This document shows positions 41,659 through 62,803 of a stretch of DNA of 64,000 bases, piece after piece. Source of the stretch: an uncultured virus (IMG/VR IMGVR_UViG_3300042331_000187) (Duplodnaviria > Heunggongvirae > Uroviricota > Caudoviricetes); IMG/VR virus record IMGVR_UViG_3300042331_000187. The stretch is one strand, 5' to 3'. Under the pieces are notes generated by a model, which was given only the letters and a program-made list of their open reading frames with translations, was not told where the DNA came from and did no database searches. The position numbers were made by a program, and so were the translations under genes. The stretch's first letter is position 1; every line of letters starts with the position of its first letter.

Positions 41659-42444
41659 CTACGCCGCCAGCGCCAGAGGTAGTTGGCCCACCACGGCGGC
41701 GGGGCAATGGCGCTGGATCTTGCGCCAGCGAGCCTCTGTGAACCACGGTTGCTGCCGGTACCAATCCTCAACCGGTGAGTTGTGCTTGCTGGAGTTGCAA
41801 GCGGTGCAGGCGGGAATGATGTTGCTCGCCTCGTCAAGCCCGCCCTTGGTCAGGGCCAACACGTGTTCAACCGTGAGGCGTTCGCGGCCGTGGTTTCGTT
41901 CGTGGCTGGCATCCACTCCACAGAATGCGCAGCGGTTGTCCCAGATGGCGAAGCGAGCGTCGATTTGAGCGCGGGTGACGGGGTGGAGGGCGGCGCGGCG
42001 GGATGACCTCCTCCATTCGCGACGCCGACGGCACTTTTCCCGAGCAGCTCCAGGATTGTTCTGATACACGCGGCGCCGAAGCTCAAATGCTTTTTCTGGA
42101 TTTTCTCTTTGCCATCGACGGGTTCTTTCTCGCTCTATTTCAGGATTGGCTCTGTAACGGAGCCGAGCGCGTTCGCGTTCAATCTTGATGTTCGATTGAT
42201 AGTAGCGGCGCCTTCGTTGGCGCTCTTCATGTAAATTGTCGTAATAGTATCGCTTGTTGCGCTCAAAGATTTTTTCTGTTTCACCTTGGATTAGGTGCGC
42301 TGAAATGGTGCCGTCTGATCGGCCCATATACCGAGCAATCGCCTTGCATTTTATGCCACACGCCGCCATGACTTCGGCGGTTACTTGGTCTTGCGCTGTC
42401 CACGGTCGACGCTTCTGACGGCTGCTCTGCGATACTGATGCCAT
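41659..42444 (-). CDS. HNH homing endonuclease with N-terminal HTH
   Basis: IARYMGRSDGTISAHL; CAFCG...EHVLALTKGG...NIIPACTACNSSKH; inserted between portal and capsid genes. Confidence 0.88.
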   Translation of the reverse strand: MASVSQSSRQKRRPWTAQDQVTAEVMAACGIKCKAIARYMGRSDGTISAHLIQGETEKIFERNKRYYYDNLHEERQRRRRYYQSNIKIERERARLRYRANPEIERERTRRWQRENPEKAFELRRRVYQNNPGAAREKCRRRREWRRSSRRAALHPVTRAQIDARFAIWDNRCAFCGVDASHERNHGRERLTVEHVLALTKGGLDEASNIIPACTACNSSKHNSPVEDWYRQQPWFTEARWRKIQRHCPAAVVGQLPLALAA

Positions 42445-42502: not shown

Positions 42503-44035
42503 CTATTCTACATCTTCTGGGGCGTCGTCGTCCTCTTCCGGCTCAGGCGGTTGCACCACGGGCTCAGGCGGTTGCTCCACGGTGGGCATCAGGCCCAGTG
42601 ATTCTTTCAGCTCGTTTTCCATGGCGATTTGCGCCATCACCTGCTCAAACTGCTCGCCGCTGTATTCAGTTATCAGCTCGCTGTGAGATTTCAATAGCAT
42701 CGCCTTGGCTTTTTCCATGGCGGAAACATCCTTAACTGGGTCCACCCAGTCCCATGATCTAGCCTGCCAGCGTGGAGCGTTATACCTTTCTGGCCTGGTC
42801 CAATAGTCATTAAAAGCTGGCGACGGCAACTCACCCGCCAGCATTGCAGCGCGTAGCCACTCTTCAAATACGCGCTGGTGGAACACCTCAATGATTGCGC
42901 TCTGCACTACCCGCCAGTGGTCGCGATCCTCCAGCACGCTGGTGCGCATGCTGCTGTAGTTCGTGTCGCTGAAATCCTTGCTAATGGTCGCGTAACTACA
43001 CCCAAACCCAGCCGCAAACCGCCTCGTAAGGTTCTTTACTACATGACTGTACTGGCCGTCGTCAGGTCCGAAGTTCGGCGGTACCGGTTCCTGGCCGGGG
43101 TCGAGGATGTTCCAGCTGCCGGGCTCAGTGTTGAACAGCTGCTGGCCGTTCTGGACCTCATCACCCTGCAACTCACCGTCTGGGGTGCGGATCCATCCCA
43201 GAGCTGCCGCTTGGACGCGCTTCCGTACCAGGTGAGCCTTTTCGTATTCAGAAAGCCCATGGACAGTTGTGATCACCGACGCCAGCCACGGCACGCCCCG
43301 GTTCTGCCCGATCCGCTCCGGCAGGAACACATGGATCATGTCCGCCGCCGGCACTAGGACGTGCTTCCGCTCTACGCCACGGCGGTTCAGGCCGAGCTCC
43401 ACATCACCAGGGTGGCGGGTCAGGATGGCGTACCGGGTGGGGCGGCCCCATTCGTTGATCTCGACGCCCAGCCGCCATTCGTGGCCAGCGCGATCTGATA
43501 CCCCGCTCTTGTCCTCATCGAGCTGGTGCGCCTCGATCAGCTCCAGCGCCAGCGGGGTGCGGCCCTGCCCCATCGGCTGCCGCACGATCCTGATCAGGCA
43601 CTCGCCCGACTCCGGCAGGCTGCCTGCGATCATCATCTCAAAGCCGTGGAACGACAGCCGGCCCGCCACGTCGCAGGTATCCGGTCGGCACCAGCGGCGC
43701 CATGCTTCCTCCAGCAGCCGATTCCGGCGCACGTCCTTTTCCGTGCCGTTAGGGCGCATCACCTGCCCCTGCATCTGGATCCCGCGAGGGCCGACCACGT
43801 TGATCTGCGTGGTCCGCTTGGCCTGGCGGGCATAGGGGTTGTCCCTGACCAGCTGATGGCAGCGGTCGCGCAGCACCGCCAGGCTGACGCGCAGCTCGGC
43901 ATCGGCGGAGGTGGTTGGCGCCACCAAGTCGTGGAGCAGCCGGTTACGCCGGGCGCCCTCAAACATCCGCTGGCCCTGCTGCCGGCCGTGCCGGGTGGTC
44001 AGGATCTGCCGCTGCAGCCAGGATCGAACACCCAT
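42503..44035 (-). CDS. Portal protein, lambda family
   Basis: LVRDNPYAR, GVEINEWGRP, GQNRGVPW, NYSSMR, WVDPVKD. Confidence 0.93.
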   Translation of the reverse strand: MGVRSWLQRQILTTRHGRQQGQRMFEGARRNRLLHDLVAPTTSADAELRVSLAVLRDRCHQLVRDNPYARQAKRTTQINVVGPRGIQMQGQVMRPNGTEKDVRRNRLLEEAWRRWCRPDTCDVAGRLSFHGFEMMIAGSLPESGECLIRIVRQPMGQGRTPLALELIEAHQLDEDKSGVSDRAGHEWRLGVEINEWGRPTRYAILTRHPGDVELGLNRRGVERKHVLVPAADMIHVFLPERIGQNRGVPWLASVITTVHGLSEYEKAHLVRKRVQAAALGWIRTPDGELQGDEVQNGQQLFNTEPGSWNILDPGQEPVPPNFGPDDGQYSHVVKNLTRRFAAGFGCSYATISKDFSDTNYSSMRTSVLEDRDHWRVVQSAIIEVFHQRVFEEWLRAAMLAGELPSPAFNDYWTRPERYNAPRWQARSWDWVDPVKDVSAMEKAKAMLLKSHSELITEYSGEQFEQVMAQIAMENELKESLGLMPTVEQPPEPVVQPPEPEEDDDAPEDVE

Positions 44036-44598
44036 CAGCTCACCCCCTGAAACCGCACATAGAGCCGGCGCGGATCGCCGAGGCCTTGCGCGATCATCTC
44101 GGCGCGTTTCTCACGGGCGACCTCGGCCTTGAGGCGGTCGCGCCACATGATTAGATCGGGCAGGTCCACCCGGCGAACTTTCCTGCCGCCGGAGCCGAGG
44201 CTGCCGATCTGATACTCAACCGCACCACCGACCAAGGCCCGAATGGCTTCCTCGGCAGCAGCCAAATCTTTCTCGGCCTGACTGCGATCGTCGAACGCGC
44301 CAGACGTTCCGCTGAAGGCCAAAGTCTTGCGGACGGTCAGGCTGCCGCGGCGCAGAGTGTGCGGCACGCCGTCAACCGTGGCCACCACCTGCACAGTCCA
44401 GTCGCCCGATGCCATCGCAGCGGTGGTGGCCGTGGTCAGCGTGACGCGCCAGCCGTCATCCGTCAGCGTCGCCGGGGCCTCGACGCCGGCGCCGGCTGCA
44501 GCGGCGCGGAGCCATGCGACCACGGCCGTAGCGTCATCAGGCGCAGGCTCAAGCCAGGTGACCTGATCGCCTTGGTAGATCTGCAGCGGCTGGGTCAT
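44035..44598 (-). CDS. Head-tail joining protein (gpW-like C-terminus)
   Basis: Immediately upstream of portal; EYQIG..RKVRRVDLPDL..RDRLKAEV. Confidence 0.75.
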   Translation of the reverse strand: MTQPLQIYQGDQVTWLEPAPDDATAVVAWLRAAAAGAGVEAPATLTDDGWRVTLTTATTAAMASGDWTVQVVATVDGVPHTLRRGSLTVRKTLAFSGTSGAFDDRSQAEKDLAAAEEAIRALVGGAVEYQIGSLGSGGRKVRRVDLPDLIMWRDRLKAEVAREKRAEMIAQGLGDPRRLYVRFQGVS

Positions 44599-44651
44599 TG
44601 ATCAGTGTCGGCAGCCTGTCTAGATCCTGACTCAAGACTAGGGAGAACAGG

Positions 44652-44671
44652 AAAAGGCGGGTTGCCCCGCC
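44652..44671 (-). terminator. Intrinsic terminator closing the repeat array
   Basis: Minus strand GGCGGG-GCAA-CCCGCC-TTTT. Confidence 0.75.
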
Positions 44672-45158
44672 TTGCCTTGCCGCCGGAAGCGGCCCTCGCC
44701 TTGCCACGCCAGTCCCTGCCACGCCATGCCTGGCCTAGCATCGCCCAGCCGCGCCCCAGGGTGCCGCGTCTGCCCTCAAAAGAGAGCAGCAGGGAGCCTC
44801 CGCAGAAGCTCCGTGCTGCTGTCTGCAGCCCTTGCCAGGCCCGGCCATGCCTCGCATGGGCTCGCCCCGCCACAACGTACCCCGCTGCGCCTGGCCTTGC
44901 CCACCCCTTGTGAGGGTGGCAGGGAGGCCGGAGCCTCCGTGCCACCGTCTGTGGCCCACACCATGCCCAGCCCTGCCGAGCTTGACATCGCCCCGCCTGA
45001 CCTAGCCAGGCCTCGCCGCGCCTCATCCGCCAATGAAGGCGGCAGGGAAGGCCCGTAGGCCCTCCGTGCTGCCATCGCAGCCCTTGCCGCGCCATGCCTC
45101 GCCCTGCCTGACCTGACCATGCCGGGCTCCGCCTGACCGAACCCCGCCAGGCCTTGCT
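44672..45158 (-). ncRNA. VIPR-like guide RNA array: four (GGY-NN)n tracts with hairpin linkers
   Basis: Tracts 45084-45158 (15 pentamers), 44958-45022 (13), 44832-44901 (14), 44696-44770 (15); 45 of 57 triplets are GGC/GGT; linkers carry UNCG hairpins. Confidence 0.85.
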
Positions 45159-45189
45159 GGGACTTACACCGTCACCGGATGCCAGCGCA

Positions 45190-45822
45190 TCAGGCCACCT
45201 CCGCCAGCAGTCGATCTAGTTGCTCGGCGACAGGTATCACCTCAGCATCAAACCGGCCATGCTTAGGCCGCCAATCGCCAATCCCCACCAGCTTGCCGGC
45301 GTCGATGGCGATCTCTTCAACGTCCCGCATGTTGAGCACGTCGGGGTCGTACTGAGCCAAGGCAGTGATGTTCCAGTTGCGGAACACGGGGCGGGTGCGC
45401 ATCACCTTGGCCATGCCTACCTTGACGCCAATCGTGTGGGTGAAGTCGCCACTGGCAAACATTTCCGAAAGCGTTTCATCGGTGATGATCTCAGGTTTGC
45501 CGTCAAACTGCAGTGAAGCGTGCTCAGTGAAGAACAGGCCGCACTTCGCTTGAGGGCCGCGCTTTGACTTTTTGGCGCCGCCGATCATCGTGCTTTCAAT
45601 CACGTAATCAGGGATCACCAAGTCGCCGTCGATGCGATATAGGCCAGCAAGCCATTCAAGCCGGGCCAGCTCGTCGTAATCAGCGTCGGTCTTCTTGCGC
45701 TTGCTGCTGACTGCTTTCATCGCCTTCGCGTAAGTATTTCGCGGATCGGCGGTCTGACCGTTGTGGCACAACAGTGGGCTCACGCCTTGCAGTCGAATCT
45801 GAACAGAAGGAAGGCTGGACAT
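45190..45822 (-). CDS. Stand-alone Cas7/RAMP-like protein (Vipr-like), 210 aa
   Basis: IRLQGVSPLLCHN beta1, LVIPDYVIESTM helix, RTRPVFRNW, C-terminal Gly loop AGKLVGIGDWRPKHGRF; GGAG RBS before ATG 45822. Confidence 0.8.
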   Translation of the reverse strand: MSSLPSVQIRLQGVSPLLCHNGQTADPRNTYAKAMKAVSSKRKKTDADYDELARLEWLAGLYRIDGDLVIPDYVIESTMIGGAKKSKRGPQAKCGLFFTEHASLQFDGKPEIITDETLSEMFASGDFTHTIGVKVGMAKVMRTRPVFRNWNITALAQYDPDVLNMRDVEEIAIDAGKLVGIGDWRPKHGRFDAEVIPVAEQLDRLLAEVA

Positions 45823-46177
45823 TTTGTCTCCGTGAAGTTGTTGGAACAGAAAGTGAAGGCGGGGCAATGTGAACCGGATCGACTTGCTTTTTGGGGTCCA
45901 GCTTGAATCGTTGGCGCCGAACTGAATTGGTGATGCCGTCATGGCACTCGGAGCACAGCGTCAGCAGGTCTGACATTTGCTCGTTGCCGAATGACGGGTA
46001 CGTGTAGTTCGGTGGGCCAGCGTTCTTGTGATGAACCTGAAGCACAGGCCAGCCCAGCTCAGCCAACTGCGCAGCAGTGATGCCGCACCCTTGGCACTGG
46101 TGGCCGTCGATCTCAAGGCGTTGCTGCCTGCGCTGCCGCCACTGGCGAGACAGGTAGTAGCCGCTAGGAGTGTTCAA
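45680..46177 (-). CDS. HNH endonuclease
   Basis: YYLSRQWRQRRQQRLEIDGHQCQGCG..LQVHHK..DLLTLCSECHD; tail overlaps the next gene. Confidence 0.82.
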   Translation of the reverse strand: MNTPSGYYLSRQWRQRRQQRLEIDGHQCQGCGITAAQLAELGWPVLQVHHKNAGPPNYTYPSFGNEQMSDLLTLCSECHDGITNSVRRQRFKLDPKKQVDPVHIAPPSLSVPTTSRRQNVQPSFCSDSTARREPTVVPQRSDRRSAKYLREGDESSQQQAQEDRR

Positions 46178-46241
46178 GCATGGTAAAGCCGGTTCTGGAC
46201 CGGGCGAGGTGTCAGCGGCCGCTAGGCTGCTGTTGGATCAA

Positions 46242-46250
46242 ACTATACCA
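46242..46250 (-). promoter_or_regulatory. Extended -10 promoter for the HNH-RAMP-array unit
   Basis: TGGTATAGT on the minus strand, about 65 nt upstream of the HNH start. Confidence 0.55.
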
Positions 46251-46260
46251 CGATCAGAGC

Positions 46261-46428
46261 ATGGCGCAAGGAATCAGGGTCCAGGTCGTTCTGCCGGTGC
46301 CCACCGTCGAGGCCCTTAGGGCCCGCGCCAAGGCGGAGGGTCGCACCGTCTCCGCCATGGGGGCGTTCTTCATCGAGGCGGGCCTGCGGGCGATACCTGA
46401 CCTCGCAAGGCCTGCTGACGCGCCTTAG
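46261..46428 (+). CDS. Ribbon-helix-helix (Arc/CopG-like) regulator
   Basis: RVQVVLPVPTVEALRARAKAEGRTVSAMGAFFIEAGL; only clear plus-strand gene within the late region. Confidence 0.75.
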   Translation: MAQGIRVQVVLPVPTVEALRARAKAEGRTVSAMGAFFIEAGLRAIPDLARPADAP

Positions 46429-48305
46429 ATCACCTTGAAGGATCGGGCCCGGCGCGGCGCGGGCTGCTGGTCTAAGGCTACTGACGCCGCCAGATCCCTT
46501 GATGCCTGCAGCTGCGCGGCCAGCTTCTCCCACATGCTCGCCTTCGCATAGCGCCTCGACGCCAGCTGCAGCGCCGCATAGGCGTACACCATGCAATCCA
46601 GCGCCTCATTCCGTGCGCTCGGGCTCTTGACCCATTCGCGCACCGGGAATCCCTTCACGTAGCGCAGCTGCTGCTTTTCGCTGGTCACTTGGCTGCACCA
46701 TTCGTCATCACCCGATAGGCCGAAGTGCACATAGCCAGGCCCTGGCTTGTTGTGCCGCAGCCGGCCAAACAGCGTGGTCTTCACCGTGTCGGTGCCCACT
46801 TGATACAGCACCACGCCGCGCTTAATTGTCTTGCCCTTCCAGTTCACATCCTGCGGCGTCCCCTTGTTGACGGGCTGCTGACTGCGGCGGCTGCTGCCCT
46901 TGATCGCCACCACGTATCGATCTCGGCGCTCCCTGGCGTACTGGTACACCTCATGGGTTGCGTGGCCGCCTGAGTCGATCGCCACTTGCGCCAGCCTGAG
47001 CTCTCCGCCACCCTCCACAGGCCAGGCAGTGTCCAGCACGGCATCAAGCTGATCCCATACCTTGGACTGCGTAGGGTCGCCCATGATCTCTTGGTGCCAC
47101 ACCAGCCACGCCTCTTCACCGGCGCCCCAGCCCCACACGCTCACCGCTAAACGGTTGTCCTGCACGTCCACGCCAGCAGTCAGCAGCAACACGCCAGCAG
47201 GGCAGTGCCCCGGTGGGTATTCCTCGCGGCGTGCAGCCAGCCCTGTGGCGCTCAGAGCAGCGGCGTAGTCATCCTCGAACGTCTCGCCCAGCAGCGTGTT
47301 GACAAAGGTCTGCAGCTGCGTGCGGTCGCTCTTCACCTCCAAGAACTCCTGAACCAGCTGGGCCCAGCTGGCGTTCGGGCTGTAGCTGTAGGCCGCCCAG
47401 ATATGGAATCCCGCCAGCCCAGGACGCTTGCTTTCCGCTGTGGCCCGCCACTCACCCCGCTCCACCATCCATCGCTTCTTGCTGTGCGGGATCAGCTGCT
47501 GGCAGTTCTCGCATTCGTAGGCCGCCGTTTCCGGTAGCCCGTTGCCGTCGGCATCCTTCTCCCACTTCATCTGAGTCCACCGCAGCACCTGGTAGTGGTC
47601 ACAGTGCGGGCAGGGCACGAAATACCGCCGCTGATCCGACAGCTCAAACCACTTCTCGATTCGGCTAAACCCTTTCAGGGTTGGCGTGCTGATCAGCCCA
47701 ATCTTTCGATTCCAAAAATACTCCGATCGCTTAATGCCCAGCTTGATCTGATCGCCCTCGGGCGTGCTGGCCGGATATCCGTCCACCTCATCGAACAGCA
47801 CAATGCGCCGGCTGACGCGGCGAAACCCCCTAGCGCTGTTGGCCCCCACCATCTGCAGCGCGGCGCCGTTCTTGAACTGCTTTAGCAGGATGGTGTTGCT
47901 GCCGTCTTTCTGTTTCGGGTCAACGATCAGCGGCTGCAATACAGGCGTATCGCGCAGCATCGGGGCAACCTCATCCTTGCTGTAGCCCTCGGCGTCCTCC
48001 ACCGTTGGCTGCACGATCATCACCGGGCAGGGGTCCTGGTGCGTGTGGTAGCCGATCACATGGTTGAAGATCTTGGTGGCGCCCACCCGCGCCGATTTCT
48101 GCCAGACCACCATCTCCACGGTTGGATCGGTAAACGCATCCATCACCGCACGCTGATACGGCAACGAGTGCCAGCGGCCGGCCTCCGCCGAGCTCTCGGC
48201 GCTGAGCATGGCGTACTCATCGGCCCACTCGCTCAGCCTGAGTTTCCGTGGTGGCCGCCACATCGCCGCACCGGCCCGCAGCAGCGGCAGATCGATCGCG
48301 CTCAC
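46425..48305 (-). CDS. terL: Terminase large subunit, GpA family
   Basis: LSEWADEY, KSARVGATK, FDEVDGYP, ISTPT, CPHC/CENC, GVDVQ, IDSGG, RNEALDC. Confidence 0.95.
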   Translation of the reverse strand: MSAIDLPLLRAGAAMWRPPRKLRLSEWADEYAMLSAESSAEAGRWHSLPYQRAVMDAFTDPTVEMVVWQKSARVGATKIFNHVIGYHTHQDPCPVMIVQPTVEDAEGYSKDEVAPMLRDTPVLQPLIVDPKQKDGSNTILLKQFKNGAALQMVGANSARGFRRVSRRIVLFDEVDGYPASTPEGDQIKLGIKRSEYFWNRKIGLISTPTLKGFSRIEKWFELSDQRRYFVPCPHCDHYQVLRWTQMKWEKDADGNGLPETAAYECENCQQLIPHSKKRWMVERGEWRATAESKRPGLAGFHIWAAYSYSPNASWAQLVQEFLEVKSDRTQLQTFVNTLLGETFEDDYAAALSATGLAARREEYPPGHCPAGVLLLTAGVDVQDNRLAVSVWGWGAGEEAWLVWHQEIMGDPTQSKVWDQLDAVLDTAWPVEGGGELRLAQVAIDSGGHATHEVYQYARERRDRYVVAIKGSSRRSQQPVNKGTPQDVNWKGKTIKRGVVLYQVGTDTVKTTLFGRLRHNKPGPGYVHFGLSGDDEWCSQVTSEKQQLRYVKGFPVREWVKSPSARNEALDCMVYAYAALQLASRRYAKASMWEKLAAQLQASRDLAASVALDQQPAPRRARSFKVI

Positions 48306-48910
48306 AGCTGCACCTGCGCAGGGCAGCCGGCATCCTCCGCCAGCCCTTCCATCGCGTCCCTGATCAGGGCATCAATGATCTCCGCTTCCTCTGCGGTCAG
48401 GTGCGGGATGCGCTGGCGGCACGCTGTCCTGACGCCCAACAACTTGGTCTTGGCGCTGTTGATCAGCTGGGCCCAAGTGTTCACCACGCTTTCACGCTCC
48501 ACTAACTGGCCCTCTTTCTGCCGGCGCTCGATCTCCAGCAGCAGGCTCTTTTCGTATTCCGTCTTTGCTCGGCTTTCGTTGTAGTCCGGCACCTCGGCAT
48601 TGGTGGTGCGCGGACGATCAGCTGGGCGATGCTGCTGTGGAGCGCGCTCAGCTGCTGAGACCAAAGCCGGCTTTGAGCGCCTGCTACGGGCGGCTACACG
48701 GCCGGCCTCCTTGCCACCGCCACCAGCGCGAGGCCTGACCTTGGCCGCGTACTCCTCGGTGAACGACGCCGCATCCTTGACGCCGATCGCCCTGCCATTT
48801 GGATCGCGCACCACGCAATCAGTCAATACCCCCCGTTTCACGAGGTCGCAGACCGCTTGCCGAGATTTCCCGACAATCGCCGCAGCTGCCGACCAATTCA
48901 GTGGATCCAT
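48302..48910 (-). CDS. terS: Terminase small subunit, Nu1-like
   Basis: N-terminal HTH; YNESRAKTE...EGQLVERE; upstream of GpA. Confidence 0.85.
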   Translation of the reverse strand: MDPLNWSAAAAIVGKSRQAVCDLVKRGVLTDCVVRDPNGRAIGVKDAASFTEEYAAKVRPRAGGGGKEAGRVAARSRRSKPALVSAAERAPQQHRPADRPRTTNAEVPDYNESRAKTEYEKSLLLEIERRQKEGQLVERESVVNTWAQLINSAKTKLLGVRTACRQRIPHLTAEEAEIIDALIRDAMEGLAEDAGCPAQVQL

Positions 48911-59675: not shown

Positions 59676-59910
59676 CGCGCTCTGTTCAGTGAATCTACTC
59701 TAGAGGGTACCGGATGGGAACCTATGAGGTAGGGTACTGGGGCCATCCGCACACGCTGCTCCCTGACGATGCCGACCACTGCCCGGGCTAGGCGGTGGGT
59801 CTCAATCGGCCTCTGGTCTGTACGGGTCCCATCGAGGACTGCCGCTGGTTCCGGCTTTGTAAGGCTCAGGGCGGCAGCAAGCAACGAGCGGGTGGCTCCT
59901 ATTCCGCGCC

Positions 59911-60378
59911 ATGATTGAACCCGCCTACCTGGCAGCACTGCGTCATCAGGTGCGCTGTGAACTGCTGCTGACGATGGTGCAGCTAGAGCAGCTGTGCCCT
60001 AGCTGGTGGGCTGACCTCAGCGAGATGGCCCAGCAGCTAGGCACCGATCGCGCATCCCTGAATCGGTCGCTGACCAAGCTGGAGGCGATGGGATTGATCA
60101 GGCGCGAGCGGATCAGCAACACCGGCGGGAACTGGGTTTGGTGGGTCAAGCGTTGCGAGGATGACCAGCCGTGTCCAGACGCCGAGCCGGCGTGGAGGCT
60201 GCGCGATCTTCAGCGCGGACGAGTCATTCGCGTCACGATCCGCGGCAGGTGGCAATGGGCGGAGCGCCAAGGGATCCCTCGGGCAACGATGCAGAGCTTT
60301 CTTGGCGGCCACCAACGCACGATGAAAGGCCGCTGGCAGGTGGCAGGCAGCCCATGGGATGACGAATCTGGCTGCTGA
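59911..60378 (+). CDS. Winged-HTH DNA-binding protein
   Basis: LSEMAQQLGTDRASLNRSLTKLEAMGLI. Confidence 0.75.
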   Translation: MIEPAYLAALRHQVRCELLLTMVQLEQLCPSWWADLSEMAQQLGTDRASLNRSLTKLEAMGLIRRERISNTGGNWVWWVKRCEDDQPCPDAEPAWRLRDLQRGRVIRVTIRGRWQWAERQGIPRATMQSFLGGHQRTMKGRWQVAGSPWDDESGC

Positions 60379-61162: not shown

Positions 61163-61370
61163 CAACACCCTGCTAGGCCGCTGCACCGTGGCCTATGAAG
61201 AGGCCTTTAACGATGCACTGCAGGCCTGGCCCGACGCCTCAGCCCGCCGCCGTGGCGTGGCTGCCGTAATCGAGCATCTGGCCGCTGAGCTGCTGGTGAT
61301 GCACCAGCGCAATGAGGGCCGGCTGTCGGCGCACGACGCAGCGCGGATGCTGCTGGAGGATCTGCGATGA
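61155..61370 (+). CDS. Hypothetical protein unique to this copy
   Basis: MPDNTLLGRC; ATGA coupling to helicase. Confidence 0.6.
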   Translation: MPDNTLLGRCTVAYEEAFNDALQAWPDASARRRGVAAVIEHLAAELLVMHQRNEGRLSAHDAARMLLEDLR

Positions 61371-62803
61371 CCACCTACGCTGAGTTCCTAGACCGCAAGC
61401 TCCACACCGGCGCTGACCACGGCTTCGATCCAGTGTTCATGCCGCCGCAGCTGTTCGACTTCCAGCAAGCCCTAGTCGAGTGGGCTGTCCGCAAGGGCCG
61501 CGCCGCAATCTTTGCTGACTGCGGCCTAGGCAAAACCGCCATGCAGCTCACATGGGCTGAAAACGTGGCGCGTCACACCGCCCACCCGGTGCTAATCCTG
61601 ACCCCGCTGGCCGTCGCCGCGCAGACCATCCGCGAGGGTGAAAAGTTCGGCATTGAGGCTCACCGCTCTAGCGATGGCAGCGTGATGGGGCGGATCGTGA
61701 TCACGAACTACGACAGGCTCCACCTGTTTGATCCTGCTGATTTTGGTGCGGTTGTCTGCGACGAATCGAGCATCCTGAAATCGTTTAACGGCTCCACCAG
61801 AAAGGCGATCACTCGCTTCATGGCCAAGATGCCGTACCGGCTGCTGTGCACGGCAACAGCTGCGCCGAATGATTACACCGAGCTGGGCAATTCATCTGAA
61901 GCGCTGGGTGAGTTGAGCTACAGCGACATGCTGCGCCGGTTCTTTGCACAGCTGGATGACAAGGGCCAGAAACGCGAAGAGCGCCTGCAAGAGTCAGCCG
62001 AAGCGATGATCAACGCCAACGCCAACTACTACAAAAAGCTGGCCTTCAGGGTGTCGCAGACTATCGGCCAGTGGCGCCTTAAGCATCACGCCCGCGAACA
62101 TTTCTGGCGCTGGGTGGCCAGCTGGGCTAGGGCTTGCCGGATGCCGTCTGATCTGGGTTTCGCCAACGATGGCTTTATCCTGCCGCCTCTGGTTGAGCGT
62201 GATCACATTATTGCCCCGGCCACCCCGCCAGAGGGGATGCTGTTCTCAATGCCCGCCTTTGGCCTGGCGGAGGAACGGGAAGAGCGCAAGCGCACCATGC
62301 AGGAGCGCTGCGAGTTTGCGGCTCAGCTGGTGGAGCATGATCGCCCTGCGGTGATCTGGTGCCACACCAACGCCGAGGGCGACCTGCTAGAGCAGCTGAT
62401 CCCCGATGCTGCCCAGGTTGCCGGCCGCACTCCAGACGATCGGAAGGTGGAGCTCTATGAGGCCTTCGCCGATGGCCGTCAGCGGGTGCTGGTGATCAAG
62501 CCAAAGATCGGCGCATGGGGGCTGAACTGGCAACATTGCGCCCACGTGGTGACGTTCGCCAGTCACAGCTATGAGCAGTACTACCAATCAGTTCGCCGCT
62601 GCTGGCGCTTTGGCCAGCAGAGCACGGTCCACCTTGACGTGATCGCCACCGAGGGCGAGGCCAGAGTGCTGGCAAACATGCGCGGCAAGGCTGAGCGAGC
62701 GTCCGCCATGTTTGAGGAACTGGTGGCGCAGATGAACAACGCCACCACGATCAAGCGCACCAATCTCTACACCACTACACCGAGGCTCCCGCAATGGCTG
62801 TAA
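61367..62803 (+). CDS. SNF2-like helicase (repeat copy)
   Basis: Same protein as 929-2365. Confidence 0.9.
   Translation: MTTYAEFLDRKLHTGADHGFDPVFMPPQLFDFQQALVEWAVRKGRAAIFADCGLGKTAMQLTWAENVARHTAHPVLILTPLAVAAQTIREGEKFGIEAHRSSDGSVMGRIVITNYDRLHLFDPADFGAVVCDESSILKSFNGSTRKAITRFMAKMPYRLLCTATAAPNDYTELGNSSEALGELSYSDMLRRFFAQLDDKGQKREERLQESAEAMINANANYYKKLAFRVSQTIGQWRLKHHAREHFWRWVASWARACRMPSDLGFANDGFILPPLVERDHIIAPATPPEGMLFSMPAFGLAEEREERKRTMQERCEFAAQLVEHDRPAVIWCHTNAEGDLLEQLIPDAAQVAGRTPDDRKVELYEAFADGRQRVLVIKPKIGAWGLNWQHCAHVVTFASHSYEQYYQSVRRCWRFGQQSTVHLDVIATEGEARVLANMRGKAERASAMFEELVAQMNNATTIKRTNLYTTTPRLPQWL

Follow-up and report, generated by a model that had tools for sequence, protein, structure and literature searches.

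An HNH-linked VIPR cassette at the terL/head-tail junction of an uncultured Caudoviricetes virus: a possible RNA-guided homing element

The T4 seg/mob genes and free-standing HNH genes between conserved phage genes are known for homing and marker exclusion. The omega-RNA-guided nucleases TnpB and IscB promote transposon retention by homing. In phages of the HK97 gp74 type, the HNH protein is a packaging accessory of the terminase. A system called VIPR was described in preprints of 2026 (10.64898/2026.04.26.720920, 10.64898/2026.04.26.720927, 10.64898/2026.10.15.759431). According to the text of these three preprints, GGY and NN units alternate in a vrRNA, on which Vipr protomers polymerise; the NN units pair with double-stranded DNA, and every third base of the target is skipped. 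A vrRNA has about 9-16 YNNGG repeats and a structured 3' tail and lies next to vipr, on the same strand. The characterised type II VIPRs silence competing phages and satellites (same three preprints). In types III-V, nucleases or helicases are predicted, and the legend of Fig. S21 names an HNH Vap (10.64898/2026.04.26.720920). The same text reads the nuclease-bearing types as host immunity, enriched in bacterial defence islands. Here we describe a VIPR cassette with an HNH gene in a 64,000-nucleotide stretch of an uncultured Caudoviricetes virus (IMG/VR record IMGVR_UViG_3300042331_000187; the whole stretch is called the window below). The cassette lies between the terminase gene terL and a head-tail joining gene (HTJ), and a first-pass annotation had proposed it as a possible RNA-guided homing element.

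The cassette is a precise, mobile insertion. In blastn alignments with the cassette-free loci L125 and L119, it appeared as an exact insertion of 1,830 bp at the terL/HTJ junction. Window positions 49000-46429 aligned to nt 48-2619 of these loci at 98.6-98.7% identity, and homology restarted at 44598, which corresponds to nt 2620, and the relative has no gap there. In cassette-free loci, the stop of terL and the start of HTJ overlap (…GGTGAT/ATGACC…); the same two points are 1,830 bp apart in the window. The insert of about 1.8 kb that had been placed between terL and the head-tail gene is therefore real, but its limits, given as 44652-46428, had to be corrected to 44599-46428 on the basis of blastn.

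Related loci were numbered (L…), and a search with the HTJ protein added 77 loci on viral contigs. In 68 of the 77, terL abutted HTJ and the site was empty; seven carried the cassette, and two did not cover the junction. The empty sites included backgrounds with a nearly identical terminase: loci L116-L120 and L125 had no cassette, and their terS and terL proteins were 99-100% identical to those of the window. The first-pass annotation had named the presence of the cassette in all relatives as an outcome that would refute its proposal. The 68 empty loci contradict this outcome.

The cassette was identified as a VIPR system whose accessory gene encodes an HNH protein. The RAMP gene that had been noted at this place is real and encodes a Vipr protein of 210 aa, a minimal RAMP with a single RRM. 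A profile of 117 homologs matched 36pp_D in PDB ('SUSP1 Vipr protein') over positions 2-189/190 with an E value of 2.8e-57, and the protein belongs to phrog_4652 (2.2e-48). It had no match in Pfam, NCBIfam or PADLOC. Its AlphaFold2 (AF2) model had a predicted local distance difference test (pLDDT) score of 96, and the best Foldseek matches were Csm3/Cas7 subunits (E 1e-5). The Vipr family comprised 2,480 representatives (50% clustering) at an E value of 0.001 or better, and the copy of the window was 33-37% identical to those of Felixounavirus, LESphi2 and Medea1. As the RAMP is Vipr and the array consists of vrRNAs, as in the VIPR preprints, the locus represents a known system and not a new kind of RNA-guided system. 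An identification as CRISPR-Cas was rejected: there was no repeat-spacer array with contiguous spacers, and no Cas matches were found in PADLOC or NCBIfam.

The array occupies about 590 nt of non-coding DNA. It consists of four tracts with 13-15 Y-NN-GG pentamers each (GGY plus NN), and each tract is followed by a hairpin of about 50 nt. The RAMP-associated array of the first-pass annotation is present, but it is not CRISPR-like: pentamer tracts are separated by hairpins. The unit period was about 125 nt and the internal phasing 5 nt. The autocorrelation was 0.39 at lag 5 and 0.42 at lag 10, compared with about 0.25 in neighbouring coding DNA. Under the 3-nt-skip pattern, vrRNA1 matched itself at 30 of 30 positions. 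The tails of the vrRNAs fold as hairpins (z -2.0 to -2.9), and the differences between the tail copies preserve pairing. Across loci, 165 of 166 detected YNNGG chains were on the vipr strand. Pentamer-plus-hairpin units also flank the distant Vipr homologs in the phages wV8, LESphi2 and Medea1.

Other readings of the array DNA were discarded. The open reading frame (ORF) at 44595-45095 was rejected as a protein on account of its phasing of 5 nt instead of 3. A contiguous complementarity of the array to 45851-45873 (two 17-nt inverted matches at 88%) looks like G+C-rich chance and is outside the VIPR rule. A scan of Rfam gave only two weak matches at chance level. In two other loci (L018, 4640-4755; L023, 4888-5018), some vrRNA tracts were much longer, with 23-26 units and internally duplicated unit blocks. 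These duplicated blocks hint at how guides grow or get remade.

Targets of the guides were searched on both strands with the published rule, in which GGY is replaced by one free base. The number of coded bases is 30 for vr4 and 28 for vr2 in full, or 26 without its degenerate first unit. The search space was the 64-kb window itself and 1.2 Mb of related loci, i.e. DNA within 4-6 kb of cassette sites. In the window, no guide scored above its shuffled versions (best 20/30, shuffled guides 20-21), nor did any match there exceed the shuffled guides at skip lengths of 0, 2 or 3. In the related loci, vr2 reached up to 23/28 (23/26) and vr4 up to 24/30, with a maximum of 21-22 for shuffled guides. 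Both targets are in HTJ of cassette-free relatives, at codons ~4-17 for vr2 and aa ~123-137 for vr4. They start 8 and 368 nt from the ATG, and the skipped base is codon position 3 in both cases (wobble-skipping phase). The predicted binding sites are 10-410 bp from the junction.

Carrier and rival alleles of HTJ differed in these scores. The homologous sites of 64 cassette-free alleles scored 17-23/26 for vr2 and 17-24/30 for vr4; 33 of them reached at least 21 for vr2, and 21 reached 24 for vr4. The HTJ allele of the window itself scored 17/28 (17/26) and 20/30, no better than shuffled guides, and five loci of the cassette's own lineage scored 17/26 and 17-20/30. The vr4 version of a sister cassette (L095) matched 40 loci at 27/30, all of them cassette-free. 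The earlier statement that two guides point at the flanking gene thus holds for the HTJ alleles of cassette-free relatives, where the matches exceed shuffled controls as the guide-target check required, but it does not hold for the phage's own allele. For vr1, two exact 10-unit patterns had 0 matches in viral contigs, though exact sub-patterns would miss the real vr2 and vr4 targets too; the full pattern with up to three mismatches had 0 matches in five whole contigs.

The same part of HTJ has been replaced in the window. Per 100 nt, identity to L125 was 96-100% upstream to the junction, 62-81% over 44598-~44170 and 91-100% beyond. A diverged tract of about 430 bp thus adjoins the insert; the first-pass annotation had suggested a comparison of related genomes for such co-conversion tracts. 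The phage's own mismatched sites for vr2 (44549-44590) and vr4 (44189-44233) lie at the two ends of this tract, which ends within ~60 nt of the distal guide site.

The cassette was also found in a different background. L095 and its sister loci carried the same cassette (HNH 96% and Vipr 97% aa identity) and the same HTJ allele (93% aa, 92% nt). The terL of L095 was only 41% identical to that of the window; it was 96% identical at the nucleotide level to that of the cassette-free loci L139, L141 and L144, and the homology to these three stopped 47 nt before the terL stop. As the same cassette and HTJ allele occur in different terL backgrounds, the cassette and the adjoining HTJ tract move together between phages. 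The cassette was much more conserved than its flanks (Vipr 70-100% and HNH 62-100%, compared with 38-70% for terL).

Contigs of four lake-water metagenome runs were aligned to 43000-48000; their depths are not usable as copy numbers. In two runs (X6 and X7), one contig of 2,324 nt spanned exactly 44167-46490 with no differences, i.e. the cassette and the replaced tract, and the flanks were on other contigs. In run X7, another contig joined 46429 directly to 44351, which is a cassette-free form. Both forms were therefore present in one lake sample. The lake metagenomes in which the two forms occur are from 2020-2024; the runs listed for the stretch included no RNA run.

The pattern extends to the sister cassettes. 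A search with Vipr found 86 loci, 82 of them with a Vipr of at least 69% identity. The junctions entered were gpA-type terL/HTJ (35 loci), T4-like terL, with or without an AbrB-like gene, and DUF4055 portal (34 loci), Prim-Pol primase/helicase (6 loci) and terS/terL (1 locus); the junction was unresolved in 7 loci. When 97 unique guides with at least 11 units were compared with 145 non-redundant loci, 180 matches at ≥80% were found, and unit-shuffled guides gave 0-1 per replicate. The matches were in HTJ (74, from 5 guides), terL (64, from 7), portal (8, from 1) and other genes (34, from 8). Fifteen of 21 distinct guide-site pairs were within -200 to +400 nt of the junction. Four guides matched terL at aa ~580-608, and three matched HTJ at aa 6-31. 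None of the 15 guides with foreign matches scored ≥80% in its own locus. Two guides of the window and many guides of sister cassettes read rival alleles of the gene beside the insertion, and the carrier allele is mismatched.

The same pattern was found independently at the terL/portal junction of a second, unrelated phage lineage with a T4-like terL, for which 79 further portal loci were analysed. The cassette was absent from 67 and present in 5; 7 did not cover the junction. A guide of L047 matched 71 of the 79 portals at +219 nt from the ATG (best 92%), another guide matched at +155, and shuffled guides gave 0 matches. Between cassette-bearing and empty genomes, the first 400 nt of the portal gene were 71-84% identical, followed by 91-100%. 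An empty-versus-empty control over the same four portal windows gave 94, 77, 93 and 98%. The control pair, L169 and L170, are both cassette-free; their 77% value is at portal nt 100-200, which holds or borders the guide sites at +155 and +219, and the neighbouring windows are at 93-98%. This divergence may be escape variation at the targeted site. The gap between terL and the DUF4055 portal in L169-L245 is a hot spot: the empty form has 375 nt with an AbrB-like gene, the VIPR form has ~1,500-2,100 nt, and alternative inserts give a gap of 894-1,177 nt with other small ORFs.

Two guides of sister cassettes matched the window itself. A guide of the L084 cassette, on a contig of a metagenome-assembled genome (MAG), matched the portal of the window at 21/26 (aa ~183, 43449-43487); a sister VIPR is thus predicted to target this phage as well. 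A 16-unit guide of L023, whose cassette is at the primase/helicase junction, matched 59801-59848 at 27/32. This site is just upstream of a gene for 155 aa (59911-60378), and L023 has a MarR-like gene for 156 aa near its own cassette.

In this VIPR, the Vap is the HNH protein. Its ORF overlaps the start of vipr by its last 143 nt, in another frame; this is the overlap that had been noted before, with the vipr start at 45822. In 30 of 30 aligned homologs, the catalytic and zinc residues C28, C31, H49, H50, N52, C75, C78 and H79 were invariant (CxxC...HH.N...CxxCH), and a basic stretch at aa 81-99 was also conserved among them. In the AF2 model, aa 1-95 are folded, and the tail, which is encoded inside vipr, is predicted to be unstructured (pLDDT <55). 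Against the NCBIfam model of IscB, the protein scored 15.5 bits (0.0073), compared with a cut-off of 175.

Linkage between the two genes was tight. An intact HNH gene was upstream of vipr in all 82 loci with a Vipr of at least 69% identity, which answers the earlier question of whether HNH co-occurs with RAMP homologs; no HNH was seen beside the distant type II Vipr homologs of LESphi2, Medea1 and wV8. In 57 of 59 unique cassettes, the HNH and vipr ORFs overlapped by 86-197 nt, and the frame was constant. A frameshift fusion of HNH and Vipr was rejected: upstream, the vipr frame was open for a median of 23 codons, compared with 40 for the third frame (59 cassettes). A multimer prediction of Vipr and HNH scored 0.00 without controls and counts neither for nor against binding. 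On a MAG contig (L088, 3805-4560), a much more distant Vipr (44% identity) was preceded by an HNH-like ORF (29% identity in tblastn) that runs into the vipr start; the overlap may predate this clade.

The positions of the features are listed in Table 1. On the minus strand, the order is terS-like gene, terL, cassette region, HTJ and lambda-family portal.

Table 1. Positions of the cassette, its parts and the flanking genes in the window
Feature	Position	Strand	Evidence
terS-like gene	48302-48910	-	phrog_57
terL, lambda gpA type (upstream flank)	46425-48305	-	Pfam GpA_ATPase 2e-78, GpA_nuclease 2.5e-101
Inserted cassette (RHH, HNH, vipr, four vrRNAs, terminator)	44599-46428	-	blastn against cassette-free relatives
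RHH gene, divergent from HNH, convergent with terL	46180-46428	+	Pfam RHH_5 E 3.8e-10, aa 33-71
HNH nuclease (Vap of this VIPR)	45680-46177	-	PHROG HNH families down to 2.3e-10; Pfam HNH weak, 0.0079
vipr gene, 210-aa Cas7-like RAMP	45190-45822	-	start ATG 45822, GGAG upstream
vrRNA1 tract, 15 GGY/NN units	45084-45158	-	pentamer register; tail ~45028-45083, fold z -2.9
vrRNA2 tract, 13 good units and 1 degenerate	44958-45027	-	pentamer register; tail ~44907-44957
vrRNA3 tract, 15 units	44832-44906	-	pentamer register; tail ~44771-44831
vrRNA4 tract, 15 units	44696-44770	-	pentamer register; then different tail and terminator
Intrinsic-terminator-like hairpin closing the array	44654-44673	-	
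HTJ, downstream flank and guide target in relatives	44035-44598	-	phrog_5774 'head-tail joining', 2.7e-26
Diverged (replaced) 5' tract of HTJ	44170-44598	-	100-nt identity to L125
Lambda-family portal	42503-44035	-	

The divergent ribbon-helix-helix (RHH) regulator and the terminator of the first-pass annotation were both recovered (Table 1). The likely start of the RHH protein is M28 at 46261, and 66 of 82 cassettes had a homolog of it. The probable role of RHH is repression of the divergent HNH-vipr promoter region. The extended -10 promoter that had been placed at 46242-46250 was not recovered, as a sigma-70 scan gave 0 promoter-like sites in 44500-46600. The direct repeat is present: the 9-mer GCCGCTAGG is at 46160 and 46218. 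It has three copies in the window compared with 0.87 expected, and 4 of 100 shuffles reach three. The repeat was rejected as a conserved RHH operator because a direct repeat of at least 9 nt in the RHH-HNH spacer was found in only 3 of 42 other cassettes.

Elsewhere in the window, a second, unrelated HNH gene is at 41659-42444 on the minus strand (Pfam HNH 1e-07), between the portal and the protease-capsid gene. Among relatives, it was absent from L125 and L108, 53-62% identical in L100, L119 and L134, and 100% identical in L155. At this neighbouring junction, the gene resembles an ordinary free-standing homing endonuclease. A direct repeat of 300 nt (905-1204 and 61343-61642, 96% identity) has its copies 60,438 nt apart; they may be related to each other or may result from a wrap-around of the assembly with strain variation.

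For the cassette as a whole, we lean towards RNA-guided homing, or marker exclusion, in which HNH would cut at the guide-bound site and repair would copy the cassette. In a mixed infection, Vipr filaments with vr2 or vr4 would bind the sensitive HTJ allele of the rival. The always-linked HNH would cut the rival DNA at the bound site, and the break would be repaired using the cassette-bearing genome. In this repair, the rival would acquire both the resistant tract and the cassette, which are 10-410 bp away. The locus shows what marks a homing element: presence or absence at one exact site in near-identical genomes, a diverged tract on the flank and a resistant carrier allele. All three checks that were run (empty sites, HNH linkage and guide targets) came out as the homing model predicts.

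Several points weigh against it. Recruitment of HNH by the guide complex and the cutting itself are steps that we infer. The text of the three preprints (10.64898/2026.04.26.720920, 10.64898/2026.04.26.720927, 10.64898/2026.10.15.759431) does not report HNH cleavage or its guide dependence, and in that of the second the authors leave recruitment of HNH by the Vipr filament open. The characterised VIPRs repress transcription without a nuclease, according to the text of 10.64898/2026.04.26.720920. The guides of the window match only 80-88% of the coded bases, and vr1 and vr3 matched at most 20 coded bases, with nothing at 80%, in the 1.2 Mb of related loci. L125, the closest cassette-free relative by terL and portal, scored only 17/26 for vr2 and 20/30 for vr4 and is therefore not a predicted target. 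The target database covered only 4-6 kb around cassette sites, which favours nearby targets and leaves distant ones invisible, and guides counted as distinct probably share ancestry in part. Moreover, phage mosaicism alone can produce diverged tracts, and a tight linkage between guide and resistant allele is expected without a DNA break as well.

The main alternative, rather unlikely but serious, is that the cassette is a weapon with a linked antidote. The VIPR would silence, or HNH would degrade, the head-tail, terL or portal genes of a rival during co-infection or superinfection, and there would be no break-driven homing. Spread would come from ordinary phage recombination and selection and not from repair of a guided cut. 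The cassette would adjoin the resistant allele because recombinants that separate the guide from this allele would self-target. The published VIPR mechanism, repression of competing elements in the text of 10.64898/2026.04.26.720920, agrees with this, and so does the mismatch of the own allele for all 15 guides with foreign matches. The L047 guide also matches five cassette-bearing portals, which fits warfare more than homing. Against a weapon stand the intact nuclease, which is fixed throughout the 82 cassettes, and the end of the replaced tract so close to the distal guide site. At least four kinds of junction have been entered, always beside the target gene of the guides, and linkage selection alone explains this less simply.

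The remaining two explanations concern HNH alone, and both fit poorly. That it is an ordinary free-standing homing endonuclease with a protein-encoded target, and that vipr and the array are hitch-hiking cargo, is improbable. Such genes are common in the region, and the one at 41659-42444 is itself variably present among relatives. In the second lineage, several alternative inserts occupy the gap between terL and portal. Yet the frame of the HNH/vipr overlap is constant in 57 of 59 unique cassettes, and the two genes are never apart in the clade. In the predicted structure, only ~95 aa of the protein are folded, and there is no separate DNA-binding domain. The guide targets cluster at junctions, which a protein-guided element would not need. 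We consider it most improbable that HNH is a packaging accessory of the terminase of the HK97 gp74 type, with a position beside terL that reflects this role. HNH does adjoin terL, and one of its PHROG matches is a 'terminase small subunit' family with an HNH region (phrog_4581, 1.2e-5). However, relatives with a terL of 99-100% identity lack HNH entirely, the same HNH-vipr pair is also at the primase/helicase junction, and gpA-type terminases have a nuclease domain of their own.

If homing is correct for this locus, it may hold more widely. We tentatively propose that HNH-linked VIPR cassettes are natural RNA-programmable phage homing elements that invade unrelated junctions by guide change. 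If true, the nuclease-bearing VIPRs would be primarily selfish, gene-drive-like phage elements and not host defence, as the preprint reads them. They would represent a natural programmable gene drive among phages and would explain the origin of VIPR guides and their positions. They would also offer a compact candidate for a guide-directed nuclease, with ~95 folded residues and a RAMP of 210 aa. The locus and its ~240 relatives are a natural experiment: sites with and without the cassette, alleles that are sensitive or resistant, and guides that lead from one to the other. The locus makes it directly testable whether a minimal HNH is recruited by an RNA-guided Cas7-like filament and drives homing.

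The VIPR system and its HNH-bearing types are already in print. What is new, as far as the text of the preprints goes, is the homing reading and the carrier, a phage packaging module: in a term search of that text, 'homing' was absent from all three and 'terminase' from 10.64898/2026.04.26.720920. The closest described systems are the nuclease-Vap VIPRs (types III-V). They share with the window a Vipr RAMP, GGY/NN vrRNAs with a structured 3' tail, an adjacent HNH-domain accessory gene, targets with a 1-nt skip in codon phase and the lack of a self-target at ≥80%. The locus of the window, in contrast, is carried by a phage within the packaging/head module; it has an array of four guides, an RHH gene and guides directed at the gene next to where it is inserted. 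It is thus in a phage packaging module and not in the defence-island context of type III. The type II VIPRs (SUSP1, P. fulva prophage) have a homologous Vipr, pentamer-plus-hairpin RNAs and a role in conflict between phages. However, they have a downstream DNA-binding Vap of ~150 aa and no nuclease, they act by repression, and they target satellites and prophage regulators and not alleles of the neighbouring gene.

Outside the VIPRs, homing of the T4 seg/mob type is similar in its present/absent polymorphism at an exact intergenic site, its diverged flank and its resistant carrier allele. In the window, in contrast, the choice of target apparently lies in RNA guides that differ between near-identical cassettes and not in the nuclease protein. 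TnpB and IscB are likewise RNA-guided nucleases that a mobile element carries and directs at the site without the element. The cassette of the window differs from them in that the proteins are unrelated, a transposase is lacking, several subunits take part in a non-contiguous recognition, and several guides point at alleles of the flanking gene and not at the donor joint.

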